A stretch of 64,000 nucleotides of DNA, taken from IMG/VR virus record IMGVR_UViG_3300044971_002889; one strand, written 5' to 3'. A model generated the notes under the pieces. The model did not search any database. It saw nothing but the letters and a program-made list of their open reading frames with translations, and was not told the DNA's origin. The translations under genes were made by a program, and so were the position numbers. Below, piece after piece: positions 5,416 to 21,837 of the stretch; positions within the stretch are counted from its first letter, which is position 1, and each line of letters begins with the position of its first letter. This stretch comes from a virus.

Positions 5416-6162
5416 TCAACCTCTAATACAAGCAGCATCCATAGGACAAGGAGCAAGATCAGAGTGCTCAAACCATTTTAAAAATGATCCCATTTTAAAT
5501 GCTTCTGGAGATGGTTCCCAAATGTCTTCATAAACATCTTCAATATCATCAAATGCATTGAGTGCCCAAGTAAGATACTTAGGTCCAAAAAATTGAATTG
5601 TATCTGGAAATCTAGGATGATGTCCTGGTAGATAGAATTTGTATTTGTCGCAGGTATTAAGATCTGGGAAGTTAAGAAGAACAGTATCATATCTTGCAAG
5701 GACAATAAAATCATAGCTGGTATTTGTTTCCTCAGCGTATGATTTGACAATATTTGCAACAGATTTAATGGAATACATTTGGGACATTACATTACTGTAA
5801 TTTTTAGGATTCCAGTGATTACCACTCTCCCCATACAACTCTCTTGCTGGGTGTTTATTAGTAAACTTTTCATCAATGAATTCTTTTGCTTTTGAGGGTA
5901 ACTCAAAAGTTTTTGGACTTTCAATACCCAAAATCAATGGTTGATAATTATCAGCAATAATTTTAGGTGCATCTTTAGAAACAGGACACTTGTTTATTTT
6001 GGACCATGAGGAATAGTCATACTCTTCAGCATCTTCCTCCCACCACATATGCCCAAATACATCAGTATCATATCGGTCAAGAATTACTTCTTTGTAAGTA
6101 TCAATAATTTGTTGGTTGTCAACAAATCTAGGTTGCCCAAAAAATGCAAGTGCTACTTTCAT
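5416..6162 (-). CDS. Putative glycan-biosynthesis protein (GT-like), paralog of 7535-8239
   Basis: MKVALAFFGQPR, DVFGHMW, SQMYS, YDFIVLARYD; located in glycan operon. Confidence 0.6.
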   Translation of the reverse strand: MKVALAFFGQPRFVDNQQIIDTYKEVILDRYDTDVFGHMWWEEDAEEYDYSSWSKINKCPVSKDAPKIIADNYQPLILGIESPKTFELPSKAKEFIDEKFTNKHPARELYGESGNHWNPKNYSNVMSQMYSIKSVANIVKSYAEETNTSYDFIVLARYDTVLLNFPDLNTCDKYKFYLPGHHPRFPDTIQFFGPKYLTWALNAFDDIEDVYEDIWEPSPEAFKMGSFLKWFEHSDLAPCPMDAACIRG

Positions 6163-7535
6163 CAGACTTCTCCTTTATAATGTTCAAGGAAGTAGTTCAG
6201 GTCTTCTGGAGTACCAATACCCCACATACCAGACTTATCGATTTCTTTGATGCGGATTTTTTTACCATCACCAATCGCTTCATTAAATACTGGACAAACA
6301 TAATATTCATTATTAACACGAATATCTTTGGCAATCATTTGTTCTGCATACTTCACATAGTCAGAACCTTTCTTCCAATAGTAGATACCAACAGTGGCAT
6401 GTTCAGAAATTGGTTTCTTCTCAGCAACCTCCTCAACATAACCCTCTTCACCAAGTTTAGCATAAGACCACTTAGGATGAGTCGCTGGGAATGTAACAAT
6501 TCCACCATCAACTTCACCGTTCTGGAATGCATAAAGGGTTTCGTTGCTATCCCATTCCACAAACTGGTCCGAATTTGCCATTACAAGAGGTTCATCATTA
6601 TTGATAAACTCCTTTGCAAGAAGAGTGGTGCAGCAAGCACCTTCAGTTAGACCATCAACTTGAACAATATTGCATCCAGGAGCAATCAAAGGAAGTAGAT
6701 AGTTCAGATTATACTTTTCATAATGTTCCTTTTGAACAATAAAAGTATAATTTGCTTTGATGTTCAGGTTCTCAACAACCACTTGGATCATTGGTTTACC
6801 TTTAACTTCAATCAAAGGTTTAGGGAAGGTGTAACCCTGACTAGCAAACCTGCTACCAGCACCTGCCATAGGAATAAGAACATTCATTGTTTTACTCTCC
6901 CATGCAACTTTTTGTTTTGTACCATTCAGAATTTTTTTAATTCTATCAATCTTTACCTGATTGAGATCTTTACGATCTTCTACAGGAACTAAATGTGCCT
7001 TACTGTCAAGAGCACCTTGACGACCAATATGACTATCTTCGACAATCACGGTATCTGCAGGAAGTGCTCCAAGAGCAGTCATACACTTCCAATACATTGC
7101 TGGGAATGGTTTGTTGCGAACAACGTCTTCATTAGAGACGTACATATCCACAAATTCCAGAAGTCCAAGACGCAATAGAATAATCTTCACAGTATTCCTA
7201 ATACTATTAGATGCAACAGCAATCTTATATCCTGCATCTACAAGTTGTTGGAAGTACCCCATCAACTCATAATCCTTTGCAACGCAGTCGTTAAAAATCT
7301 TAAGTGTTGCTTCTTGCTTATCTCTCCAAATTGTATCATAAAGATCTACAGGAAGACCTTTATTCTTGGTTAAAAGTTCTAGTTTTGCTTTGGTAGGAAG
7401 ACCATCATAAATGCTAACATGCTCTTCTCTGCTGATAGCATACTCATCTCCAAGTGCTTGGTTTAATGCTTCATAATGATAATCTTTACTGTCGATTAAG
7501 ACTCCATCCAAATCAAAGATAACAAGTTTGGTCAT
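6162..7535 (-). CDS. HAD phosphatase fused to sugar nucleotidyltransferase
   Basis: N-terminal FDLDGVL...KP...VEDS; C-terminal IPMAGAGSRF...PKPLI...EKKPIS...GTPEDL. Confidence 0.88.
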   Translation of the reverse strand: MTKLVIFDLDGVLIDSKDYHYEALNQALGDEYAISREEHVSIYDGLPTKAKLELLTKNKGLPVDLYDTIWRDKQEATLKIFNDCVAKDYELMGYFQQLVDAGYKIAVASNSIRNTVKIILLRLGLLEFVDMYVSNEDVVRNKPFPAMYWKCMTALGALPADTVIVEDSHIGRQGALDSKAHLVPVEDRKDLNQVKIDRIKKILNGTKQKVAWESKTMNVLIPMAGAGSRFASQGYTFPKPLIEVKGKPMIQVVVENLNIKANYTFIVQKEHYEKYNLNYLLPLIAPGCNIVQVDGLTEGACCTTLLAKEFINNDEPLVMANSDQFVEWDSNETLYAFQNGEVDGGIVTFPATHPKWSYAKLGEEGYVEEVAEKKPISEHATVGIYYWKKGSDYVKYAEQMIAKDIRVNNEYYVCPVFNEAIGDGKKIRIKEIDKSGMWGIGTPEDLNYFLEHYKGEV

Positions 7536-14452: not shown

Positions 14453-14467
14453 AAAAACCAAAGAAGG

Positions 14468-14865
14468 ACGCGCCACCTAGTTTTGACTGAACTAGGAAAC
14501 AGGCGGGAGAGATTCCCATCCGCACCAGTCGGCATATTTAAAGTCCATCCGACGAGGACATAAGGGGTCAGATTGACTCCACCACTTAGTTTTAAGAAAC
14601 TAAGAAAAGTTGGGTTAACTTTGATATTTCGGAGATACCAAAGAATGCACATAAAAACAGCACATCCCAAAGTTTAAGTTTGATAGCAAAAGGAATTGTG
14701 AGAAGACCTCCAATAACTTTAATCATCAAACCATATTTAAATTCTCCCCATAACATAGTTTGATAACCAATTATAAGAAGAATGTTTCCAATCCACCGAA
14801 GTAAATCAGATTTAGACATAAGGGGTTGCTCCCGACCAGGGCACTTTTATAGTCATTCCGAGACT
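14468..14865 (-). ncRNA. Structured RNA (possibly manA-type cyanophage motif) split by an inserted ORF
   Basis: Hairpins AGTC/GACT, GTCC/GGAC, GGGA/TCCC, CCTAGTT/AACTAGG; family name from memory only. Confidence 0.5.
14592..14819 (-). CDS. Small membrane protein (75 aa)
   Basis: Three hydrophobic segments; lies between 12-bp direct repeats. Confidence 0.65.
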   Translation of the reverse strand: MSKSDLLRWIGNILLIIGYQTMLWGEFKYGLMIKVIGGLLTIPFAIKLKLWDVLFLCAFFGISEISKLTQLFLVS

Positions 14866-15204: not shown

Positions 15205-15207
15205 AAG

Positions 15208-15335
15208 TGGGGATAGTCGAACTTCACCCAATTTGGGCAAAGTCCTCGGACCCTGCCCAACCATCCCCATACGACGCTACGGAAGATATCCGTAGTAGAA
15301 GTTGGCGTCTACTTAGTTAATCGCTAAGGACTACC
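15208..15335 (-). ncRNA. Unannotated structured RNA between two tRNAs
   Basis: Stems CTTAG/CTAAG, CTACGGA/TCCGTAG, GGGCAGGGTC/GACTTTGCCC, TGGGGATGGTTG/CGACTATCCCCA. Confidence 0.5.
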
Positions 15336-15337
15336 AA

Positions 15338-19492: not shown

Positions 19493-20092
19493 ATGAACAT
19501 AGATGAATATCTTTTAAGTCTAGGATATGACGATAAAGAGACCTTATACGAACCTGGTAAGAAGTTATCTATAAAAATTCCATTTGATTTTAATGGTAAA
19601 AGAATTAATATCTGCCCATACATTGTTCCATATTATAGCAAAAAAAGTTACATAGCAGCAGAATATAATTACTCAGTTTACTACGACAATCCAGAAGTAA
19701 CCAAACAAAAAATTCTAAATTTAATCAAATACATTAAATATCCAGAACCAGGTAGAGTTGGTGATATTGGATGGGAAGCAGAATATCTTGTAGACCCCAG
19801 AGAATTTACTGCTGAAGAAAGAGCACGTATTGTTGTATCTAGTTTTAAAAAATTTAGAACCTTAATTTTAAAAGGTGAATGGTTGGACGGAATCAGAGCA
19901 CAACCAGGTGATATTGTAGCATCTAAACCAATAGGAATTAAATTTGATATGGGATTTAATGAAGAATCGGAAAAAGAAGGAACTCTCCAAAGAAGCATAC
20001 TTTCAAAAAAAGTATTCAGGTTTGGAGAGTTAAAAGAAGATGGAATGCAATATTCAATTATTGGAGAAGATTTAGATATGCATCCTATCTAA
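19493..20092 (+). CDS. Hypothetical protein
   Basis: About 200-aa plus-strand ORF; no recognised motif. Confidence 0.65.
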   Translation: MNIDEYLLSLGYDDKETLYEPGKKLSIKIPFDFNGKRINICPYIVPYYSKKSYIAAEYNYSVYYDNPEVTKQKILNLIKYIKYPEPGRVGDIGWEAEYLVDPREFTAEERARIVVSSFKKFRTLILKGEWLDGIRAQPGDIVASKPIGIKFDMGFNEESEKEGTLQRSILSKKVFRFGELKEDGMQYSIIGEDLDMHPI

Positions 20093-20336
20093 CTTCAAAG
20101 TCCAACTTACGGACTTTCCTTTGCCTTCTACTTTCTTGCCAAGAAATATCATCAGAAGATAAGACTCCAATATTTTTATTTGGGGTCTTAGTACTTTCAA
20201 TAATAATGACTTGACTAAGGTCATTTGCAAAAATAGTATCATTCTTAATAGATGTCATATTAGGACATCCACAAGAAATAGTTTTTGCAACATGAGCTTG
20301 CAGTTCTTTATTGCAAGATTTACAACGTATTAACAT
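20085..20336 (-). CDS. Zn-ribbon-like cyanophage hypothetical protein
   Basis: CKSC...CGCPN; C-terminal RKVRKLDFEVR. Confidence 0.7.
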   Translation of the reverse strand: MLIRCKSCNKELQAHVAKTISCGCPNMTSIKNDTIFANDLSQVIIIESTKTPNKNIGVLSSDDISWQESRRQRKVRKLDFEVR

Positions 20337-20363: not shown

Positions 20364-20435
20364 TGGGCGAAGAGGGGATCGAACCCCCGACCGACTGGGT
20401 GTAAACCAGTAGCTCTACCGCTGAGCTATTCGCCC
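20364..20435 (-). tRNA. tRNA-Val (TAC)
   Basis: GGGCGAA/TTCGCCC acceptor, ACTGG-TTTACAC-CCAGT. Confidence 0.95.
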
Positions 20436-20440
20436 TTAAT

Positions 20441-20614
20441 GAGTAGTGAGTGCCCACCACTCGCGGAAGACACTTTCCGCAAAAGCTTCACTTTCGTGAA
20501 GAGTCAATAGACACGCTATTGACATGTTTTTTGTTACTGGCGGGGGTGATCAAGTCCCCGACCTAAGCGAACTTAGGATTTAGTAAGGAAGACCCAGACA
20601 TTTCTAGACCTTCC
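20441..20614 (-). ncRNA. Unannotated multi-hairpin RNA between tRNA-Asn and tRNA-Val
   Basis: Seven consecutive hairpins, including TTCG and GAAA tetraloops. Confidence 0.6.
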
Positions 20615-20616
20615 AA

Positions 20617-20688
20617 CTGCCCAGCCTGGGATCGAACCAGGGACCAATCGATTAACAGTCGATAGCTCTACCGCTGAGCTACTAGGCA
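20617..20688 (-). tRNA. tRNA-Asn (GTT)
   Basis: TGCCTAG/CTGGGCA acceptor, ATCGA-CTGTTAA-TCGAT; promoter TTGACA-17-TAACAT at 20745-20717. Confidence 0.94.
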
Positions 20689-20759
20689 TTATATTTTTTT
20701 ATTTAATCACCTATAAATGTTATCACACTTATTTTAAATTGTCAAGTAGGTTTTTTTAT

Positions 20760-21739: not shown

Positions 21740-21837
21740 ATGTGGACACTGACCTGATGGTTACTCTTTCTGCGGAGGGAGGCGTCAGTTTTTTATATCC
21801 AAGCAAGCACCTTGCTGGAGTCCATGTGGTAATGATA

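Follow-up and report, generated by a model that had tools for sequence, protein, structure and literature searches.

What lies between the genes for tRNA-Asn(GUU) and tRNA-Val(UAC) of this virus, which are set 181 nt apart on the minus strand (20436-20616), and is it an RNA in its own right or a by-product of the processing of its two neighbours? The window, which is the whole 64,000-nucleotide (64-kb) stretch of DNA that was analysed, is part of a T4-like cyanomyovirus with nine minus-strand tRNA genes and a wcaG RNA, and among cultured phages its best matches are Synechococcus phages. The same DNA turns up in metagenomes of lakes or fresh water (14 runs), and any one of these could be the sample that the window came from. 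The preliminary description took the spacer to be one undescribed RNA of seven hairpins, co-transcribed with the tRNAs, or alternatively two RNAs joined by an A-rich linker. The spacer is a genuine, conserved and folded non-coding RNA that is virus-specific, single-copy and absent from RNA catalogues, and it is one arrangement of a modular family, not a single seven-hairpin design. The parts of the locus, read 5' to 3' along the tRNA strand, are:

20717 to 20745, minus strand: putative sigma-70-like promoter (TTGACA, 17-nt spacer, TG-extended TAACAT), a match to the consensus only, at 10 of 12 positions
20617 to 20688, minus strand: tRNA-Asn(GUU) without an encoded CCA, the 5' anchor of the family (ARAGORN; Rfam tRNA 65.6 bits)
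20587 to 20614, minus strand: H1, an 11-bp hairpin with loop AAAUGU, the 5'-terminal module, 2 nt after tRNA-Asn
20534 to 20586, minus strand: M1 module, a single-stranded conserved CUAAAU plus hairpins M1a and M1b
20582 to 20586 with 20534 to 20538, minus strand: 5-bp helix closing around M1 in this window (RNAfold)
20562 to 20577, minus strand: hairpin M1a
20541 to 20560, minus strand: hairpin M1b with the 10-nt loop ACUUGAUCAC
20524 to 20533, minus strand: A-rich linker at the M1/M4 junction, unpaired in the MFE and centroid structures
20486 to 20523, minus strand: M4 module, a rare insert made up of M4a and M4b
20503 to 20523, minus strand: hairpin M4a with loop CGUGU
20486 to 20501, minus strand: hairpin M4b with a GAAA loop
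20441 to 20480, minus strand: M8 module, M8a abutting M8b, the usual 3'-terminal module
20463 to 20480, minus strand: hairpin M8a with the invariant loop AGUGUC
20441 to 20462, minus strand: hairpin M8b, 9 bp, loop G-NCAC-U, ending 5 nt before tRNA-Val
20364 to 20435, minus strand: tRNA-Val(UAC) without an encoded CCA, the 3' neighbour (ARAGORN; Rfam tRNA 69.1 bits)

When the minus strand of the spacer is folded it reaches a minimum free energy of -64.0 kcal/mol against -44.1 +/- 4.0 kcal/mol for 200 dinucleotide shuffles, none of which folds as well (RNAfold, z -4.98, 0/200), which is an exceptional fold, and all seven of the stems that had been picked out by eye between 20441 and 20614 on this strand are returned by RNAfold. 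The plus strand gives a weaker fold (-57.9, z -4.23) that is still better than its shuffles. It had also been claimed that the spacer holds no ORF and that none of its stems is followed by a U-tract, both of which are borne out, as just ORFs of 21-38 aa overlap the spacer, and the minus strand has no U-tract after the stems and no intrinsic terminator. A small ORF starting at the AUG of the H1 loop was considered and ruled out; AUA, ACG or AUU replaces this AUG in many members of the family.

Searched by BLASTN against 50,697 phage records, the spacer matched over its first 29 nt alone, in the freshwater phage S-SRM01, and it was pattern scans that led to the family. The S-SRM01 locus has its first hairpin and its last two in common with the window, with compensatory changes in them, and a different middle. 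Pattern scans of IMG/VR returned 100 stretches for the 3' hairpin pair, 99 of which are genuine, 69 stretches for the hairpin M2 and at least 120 for the 5' hairpin H1. In all, over 150 viral contigs carry the family, as do the isolates S-SRM01 and S-PM2. S-PM2, a marine model phage, has H1, M1 and an M2-like hairpin in which the stem is wholly replaced and the loop near-identical (CCUCUAAC vs CCUCUAAU).

A covariance model, R1, was built on 14 members of the family with the window left out. Its sole match in the 64-kb window is the spacer, at full length (20437-20615, minus strand, 109.6 bits, E 1.4e-26), and it picks out a single locus per genome in five whole phage genomes (196-249 kb), these being three IMG/VR records that CheckV rates as 100% complete and the full records of S-SRM01 and S-PM2. 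A dispersed repeat or MITE is ruled out by this one locus per genome. No real copy was found by an exact-pattern scan of 185,579 prokaryote genomes (one per species), which returned two chance matches without flanking hairpins, apparently inside coding sequence; as the scan used exact patterns, diverged host copies could be missed. Some cyanophages have no copy of the family, and in S-CREM2, where tRNA-Asn and tRNA-Val are 3 nt apart, the element is lacking, so that it must be dispensable in some backgrounds.

The preliminary description left open whether covarying homologs of the stems exist. They do for five of the seven stems, which are kept by compensatory changes, the sequence of the other two (M4a and M4b) being invariant. 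In H1, 46 distinct sequences have 96.8% of alignment cells paired, with 5 of the 11 pairs changed on both sides and a covariation score of 0.448 compared with 0.245 in shuffled alignments (0/500). M8a and M8b together, with 55 distinct sequences, have 98.8% of cells paired, two-sided changes at 8 of 15 pairs and a score of 0.380 compared with 0.189 when shuffled (0/500). For M1a and M1b there are 50 distinct sequences, in which 99% of cells pair and 3 pairs show compensatory changes. If the partner strand of H1 or M8 is slid by 1-3 columns, at most 67% of cells pair and the covariation score is at most 0.16. An unguided RNAalifold consensus contains the same five hairpins (H1, M1a, M1b, M8a and M8b), which are thus shown to be maintained by selection on the tRNA-sense strand. 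Since the sequence of M4 does not vary, the case for the stems of M4a and M4b is a thermodynamic one alone.

The closing helix around M1 fares differently. It had been seen as part of a three-way junction, and the helix does form in the window, yet only 53% of its cells are paired across 50 relatives and it is absent from the RNAalifold consensus. It is therefore no feature of the family, and the junction has to be given up as a general description.

The strand to which the structure belongs is given by its G-U pairs, which make up 30% of the cells in H1. Read on the other strand, such pairs in H1 and M8 turn into A-C mismatches, and pairing falls from 96.8% in the sense to 67.4% in the antisense direction for H1, and from 98.8% to 84.8% for M8, thus the structure belongs to the tRNA strand, as the G:U pairs had led the preliminary description to suppose. 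The loops are near-invariant on these varying stems, with GAAAU in H1, AGUGUC in M8a and G-NCAC-U in M8b. Of the UUCG and GAAA tetraloops which had also been noted, GAAA is the loop of M4b, and where the window has the UUCG of M1a, relatives usually have UUUU, AUUU or UUUA. Within M8, the M8a loop AGUGUC could pair with its complement GGCACU in M8b as a kissing loop; 4 of its 6 pairs never vary, 2 of the 6 change on one side only, the U-G position is broken in 4 of 55 sequences and there is no covariation between the M8a and M8b loops.

The RNA is tied to one tRNA at its 5' end and has a varying one at its 3' end. Among the viral-contig matches listed, 142 of 164 H1 copies come directly after tRNA-Asn(gtt) and for most of the remaining 22 the contig stops short. 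A gap of 0-2 nt separates H1 from the tRNA in every unique array that has it (104/104 among the matches listed), and in 76 of 92 unique arrays among the matches listed the gap from the end of M8 to the following tRNA is 3-5 nt, a spacing which the window shares. The downstream tRNA is variable in relatives and may be Thr, Val, Leu, Met, His or Ala.

Between the ends of the array at least nine further modules come and go, giving about 30 architectures among the 115 unique arrays listed, with an array length of 67-316 nt, the long arrays (280-316 nt) having modules of about 100 nt. Throughout these changes the modules keep to the order H1-M7-M3-M1-M5/M6-M2-M4-M8-M9, with zero conflicts in the 115 unique arrays listed, and the H1-M1-M4-M8 of the window fits this fixed order. 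The same architecture was found in just one other contig among the matches listed (L011), where the spacer is identical to that of the window. The nearest relative on record (L218) has 96% identity to the window over the upstream flank, tRNA-Asn, H1 and M1, and in place of the window's M4 and M8 has M9, an odd tRNA-like gene and further hairpins; that the two differ after M1 despite this identity implies that modules turn over between close relatives.

M4 is a rare module, being found outside the window in three IMG/VR contigs (L011, L070 and L079), in all of which the module sequence is identical, and a 17-nt pattern scan for further copies gave just chance matches beyond these three, mostly in coding-looking DNA. 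An A-rich run precedes M4 in L070 and L079 too. The suggestion that the spacer might be two RNAs joined by the A-linker comes near the mark, in that the linker does mark a junction between modules: the RNA is a chain of independent modules and the linker is the junction of M4, seated between M1 and M8.

Other features are found at the 3' side of these arrays. A conserved odd tRNA-like gene, which starts CCUCUGGUAGUCUAUUGG and has a normal T-arm, comes after the modular RNA in several of them (980-1052 of L215, which is S-PM2, and 1805-1876 of L218); ARAGORN calls it tRNA-??? with a 2-nt anticodon in S-PM2 and does not call it in L218. A tRNA-His with the anticodon AUG (atg), not GUG, is found by ARAGORN just after M9 in at least 14 contigs, for example L010, L042, L053 and L064.

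No family in Rfam 15 matches the region 20436-20616 at its threshold and none is credible at E<=10, where the overlaps are at chance level (SpF41 with 22.8 bits against a threshold of 52, mostly over tRNA-Asn, and sau-63 with 13.2 against 100); a wider Rfam scan at E<=1 found nothing in the spacer either. GOLLD, ROOL, manA, YrlA, tmRNA, ToxI, abiF and the ribozymes of Rfam 15 are without a match in the spacer, neither ARAGORN nor the Rfam tRNA model (RF00005, even at E<=10) finds a tRNA in it, and running Rfam over the marine relatives and the related freshwater loci put no name to the modules either. A search of the literature found no description of the family, in agreement with the view that the structured RNA had gone undescribed. 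The 8,495 unnamed structured-RNA candidates of IMG/VR that were predicted in a 2023 survey (PMC10690425) might include it.

The same scans returned several RNAs of other kinds. On the minus strand of the window the wcaG RNA scores 60.8 bits and a second, partial wcaG match immediately upstream of it is weak (23.2 bits, E 0.65), the pair being placed at 14462-14561 and 14570-14649. Two other spacers flanking tRNAs in the window, 15205-15337 and 21740-21830 (minus strand), had likewise been noted as structured; they have no Rfam match at E<=1 and contain none of the modules of the Asn-linked family. The abiF RNA (RF03085) exceeds its gathering threshold within the tRNA arrays of the freshwater relatives S-SRM01 (L006 1294-1330), L114 (9501-9537), L109 (2367-2403) and L151 (5315-5351). 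Near the tRNA array of L047 there is a permuted tmRNA of the cyanobacterial type (6071-6330, minus strand), with scores of 65.2 bits for cyano_tmRNA (threshold 70) and 47.9 bits for tmRNA_permuted (threshold 47).

Between the tRNA genes of marine cyanomyoviruses there is another conserved and structured element, distinct from this family and some 125 nt long, seen in S-8S53 (L001 666-792), S-H34 (L003 668-765) and S-SCSM2R (L004 666-792) and, by a 17-nt pattern, in more than 120 IMG/VR contigs. It consists of a hairpin, a long-range CUCACAU/AUGUGAG stem and two more hairpins, its upstream tRNA may be Thr, Asn, Ala, Gly or Arg and its downstream tRNA is often Asn. This element has neither an Rfam match nor a match to R1. 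A homology of H1 with its first hairpin, with which it shares CUGGAAU, was considered and is unsupported, R1 missing those loci.

How the RNA might come about can be read from its position. We think it probable that a modular RNA is co-transcribed with the tRNAs, freed from them by processing, protected at its ends and provided with loops that serve as docking sites. Transcription together with tRNA-Asn and tRNA-Val would begin at the promoter-like site, which a consensus scan places 28 nt upstream of tRNA-Asn. RNase P generates the 5' end of every tRNA, and where a tRNA is without an encoded CCA it is RNase Z that removes the 3' trailer, just past the discriminator base. RNase Z would thus cut behind the CCA-less tRNA-Asn and leave a 5' end 0-2 nt before H1, and the RNase P cut that forms the 5' end of tRNA-Val would put the 3' end of the RNA 5 nt after M8b. 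The RNA of about 180 nt that this would release has a hairpin at each terminus, and these are proposed to shield it from end-dependent RNases, that is from 5'-end-dependent RNases and 3' exonucleases, so that it could accumulate. Its conserved loops AAAUGU, ACUUGAUCAC, AGUGUC and G-NCAC-U may serve as docking points for a protein or RNA partner, or for several.

Co-transcription with the tRNAs is suggested by the promoter-like site, by the strand bias of the G-U pairs and by metatranscriptome contigs. One such contig of 151 nt spans 20444-20588 of the window, and in a second study a contig of 235 nt with a depth of 43.6 contains the M7-M1-M9 chain of a relative; in both cases the ends and strand are unreadable and contaminating DNA is a possible source. 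The RNA runs consist of assembled contigs and the parts of the spacer left uncovered in a run carry no meaning. The geometry of release and end-protection of the 180-nt RNA we infer from the spacing statistics. Cleavage may also occur between modules, at AU-rich linkers, in which case the product could be several small RNAs in place of one.

Of the other explanations, one makes the modules anti-defence decoys that mimic the RNA ligands of RNA-guided or RNA-neutralised host defence proteins and are swapped as the hosts change. We regard this as unlikely, and the ligands of type III toxin-antitoxin systems or of Abi nucleases are tentative candidates for what would be mimicked. The locus would then be a cassette array of RNA decoys, each module imitating the ligand of a different host defence or regulatory protein in the course of an arms race, a picture we likewise hold to be doubtful. 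It would suit a family found only in viruses, with invariant loops on variable stems and some 30 architectures among the 115 unique arrays listed, and it would suit the difference in modules between the window and a nearest relative that is 96% identical over the flank and H1-M1. The presence of abiF RNA above the Rfam threshold in related tRNA arrays, with no annotated AbiF gene within about 1.5 kb in S-SRM01, would also be in keeping with it. However, the strict order of the modules would be explained at least equally well if a single ancestral RNA had lost different modules in different lines, no host counterpart was found for any module, and Rfam finds neither abiF nor ToxI nor any other RNA linked to defence in the window. 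Were the locus a decoy array after all, phage tRNA operons would be a general delivery platform for anti-defence RNAs, the array being released by the tRNA-processing enzymes, and the modules gained and lost among phages that are otherwise near-identical would be the trace of an arms race with their picocyanobacterial hosts.

It is also rather improbable that the hairpins are simply an aid in cis, serving to insulate the neighbouring tRNAs, to direct RNase Z and RNase P or to shield tRNA-Asn, with the excised spacer going to waste. The tight packing against both tRNAs is what such an aid would lead one to expect, as is the lack of a terminator on the tRNA strand, and other tRNAs of S-SRM01 are flanked by spacer hairpins as well. 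Yet the element is confined to one locus in each genome and adjoins one tRNA species only, its loops are near-invariant across viral contigs in a way not required of plain insulator stems, the arrays extend to 280-316 nt with modules of about 100 nt included, and some phages process an Asn-Val pair with a spacer of 3 nt. Invariant loops on covarying stems, together with one locus per genome and a single tRNA species, point to a function of its own and not to processing waste.

A decaying tRNA gene, with M1 and related modules as relics that have no present function, is very improbable as an explanation. M1 does have two arms, one of them with a T-arm-like loop, and in the window an acceptor-like closing helix, the M1b loop contains UUGAUC, which is near the UUCGAUC of neighbouring T-loops, the module M7 of relatives has a perfect T-arm and rnaC of T4 a canonical one. 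Against this, ARAGORN and the Rfam tRNA model (even at E<=10) score no part of the spacer, the acceptor-like helix is not conserved, and the compensatory changes and invariant loops amount to ongoing purifying selection. A tRNA origin of the modules would not exclude a present function.

An element acting as DNA or from the opposite strand, be it a palindromic repeat, a recombination site or a plus-strand terminator at M4a, is scarcely credible: M4a followed by ATGTTTTTTG does match the intrinsic-terminator consensus (20503-20533, plus strand) and the plus-strand fold does beat its shuffles (z -4.23), but on that strand H1 and M8 have A-C mismatches in place of their G-U pairs, the element is single-copy and not dispersed, and the plus-strand gene ending at 20092 already has a terminator-like site at 20097-20117.

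The family suggests that the tRNA operons of abundant aquatic viruses also make non-tRNA RNAs that are missed by current annotation. Its invariant loops point to specific partners, and natural 'deletion mutants' exist for every module. Two of the phages that carry it are in culture with their hosts, S-SRM01 on Synechococcus KCZYC6 and S-PM2 on WH7803. Should the modules prove to be decoys or regulators, an RNA layer would be added to the takeover of the host by cyanophages.

Several known systems resemble the family in one respect or another. GOLLD and ROOL are orphan structured RNAs that are often found near phage tRNAs, each built as one large architecture several hundred nt long, in contrast to the cyanophage family, which is a chain of small independent hairpin modules of 67-316 nt in all. 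The analogy with them that was drawn in the preliminary description is thus a loose one, with no Rfam match to either, and the RNAs of the T4 tRNA cluster provide a better one. YrlA, a bacterial Y RNA (RF02553), is modular with tRNA-like parts, and relatives of the window's RNA carry a module with a perfect T-arm. The arrangement in the window is without the T-arm module, unlike tRNA mimics of the YrlA type, and the YrlA match that was obtained (26.6 bits against a threshold of 69) falls over real tRNA genes elsewhere in the window, outside the spacer.

The abiF RNA (RF03085) is closer in its setting, as it is a small hairpin RNA that likewise sits between phage tRNA genes, both in S-SRM01 and in related contigs. 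The abiF-motif RNA binds the AbiF toxin directly and neutralises it (PMC12373285). The window is without a match to it and no module resembles it in the Rfam scan, and the link is one of context only.

The closest known analogue is the pair of small stable RNAs of T4, rnaD (species 2) of 119 nt and rnaC (species 1) of 139 nt (PMC2330249), the likeness being one of position and inferred biogenesis and not of homology, as R1 run over the T4 region with its filters off gave a best score of 5.7 bits (E 1.8). Like the cyanophage family these are non-tRNA RNAs of similar size inside the tRNA operon of a T4-like myovirus, with rnaD starting 1 nt after tRNA-Arg and rnaC 6 nt later, as H1 of the window starts 2 nt after tRNA-Asn. 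They differ from each other in their folds, rnaC (L346 1909-2047, minus strand) folding far better than its shuffles (z -4.57), with a canonical T-arm GGUUCGAAUCC and an end-closing helix, and rnaD being indistinguishable from its shuffles (z -0.83). They differ from the cyanophage RNA in lying at the end of the tRNA cluster and not between two tRNAs, and in being tied to tRNA-Arg; the cyanophage family is attached to tRNA-Asn and is built from modules in varying combinations. The T4 genome record says of these RNAs only 'small, stable RNA', with no function named, and the hundreds of natural variants in the cyanophage family offer a comparative handle on stable RNAs of the T4 type.
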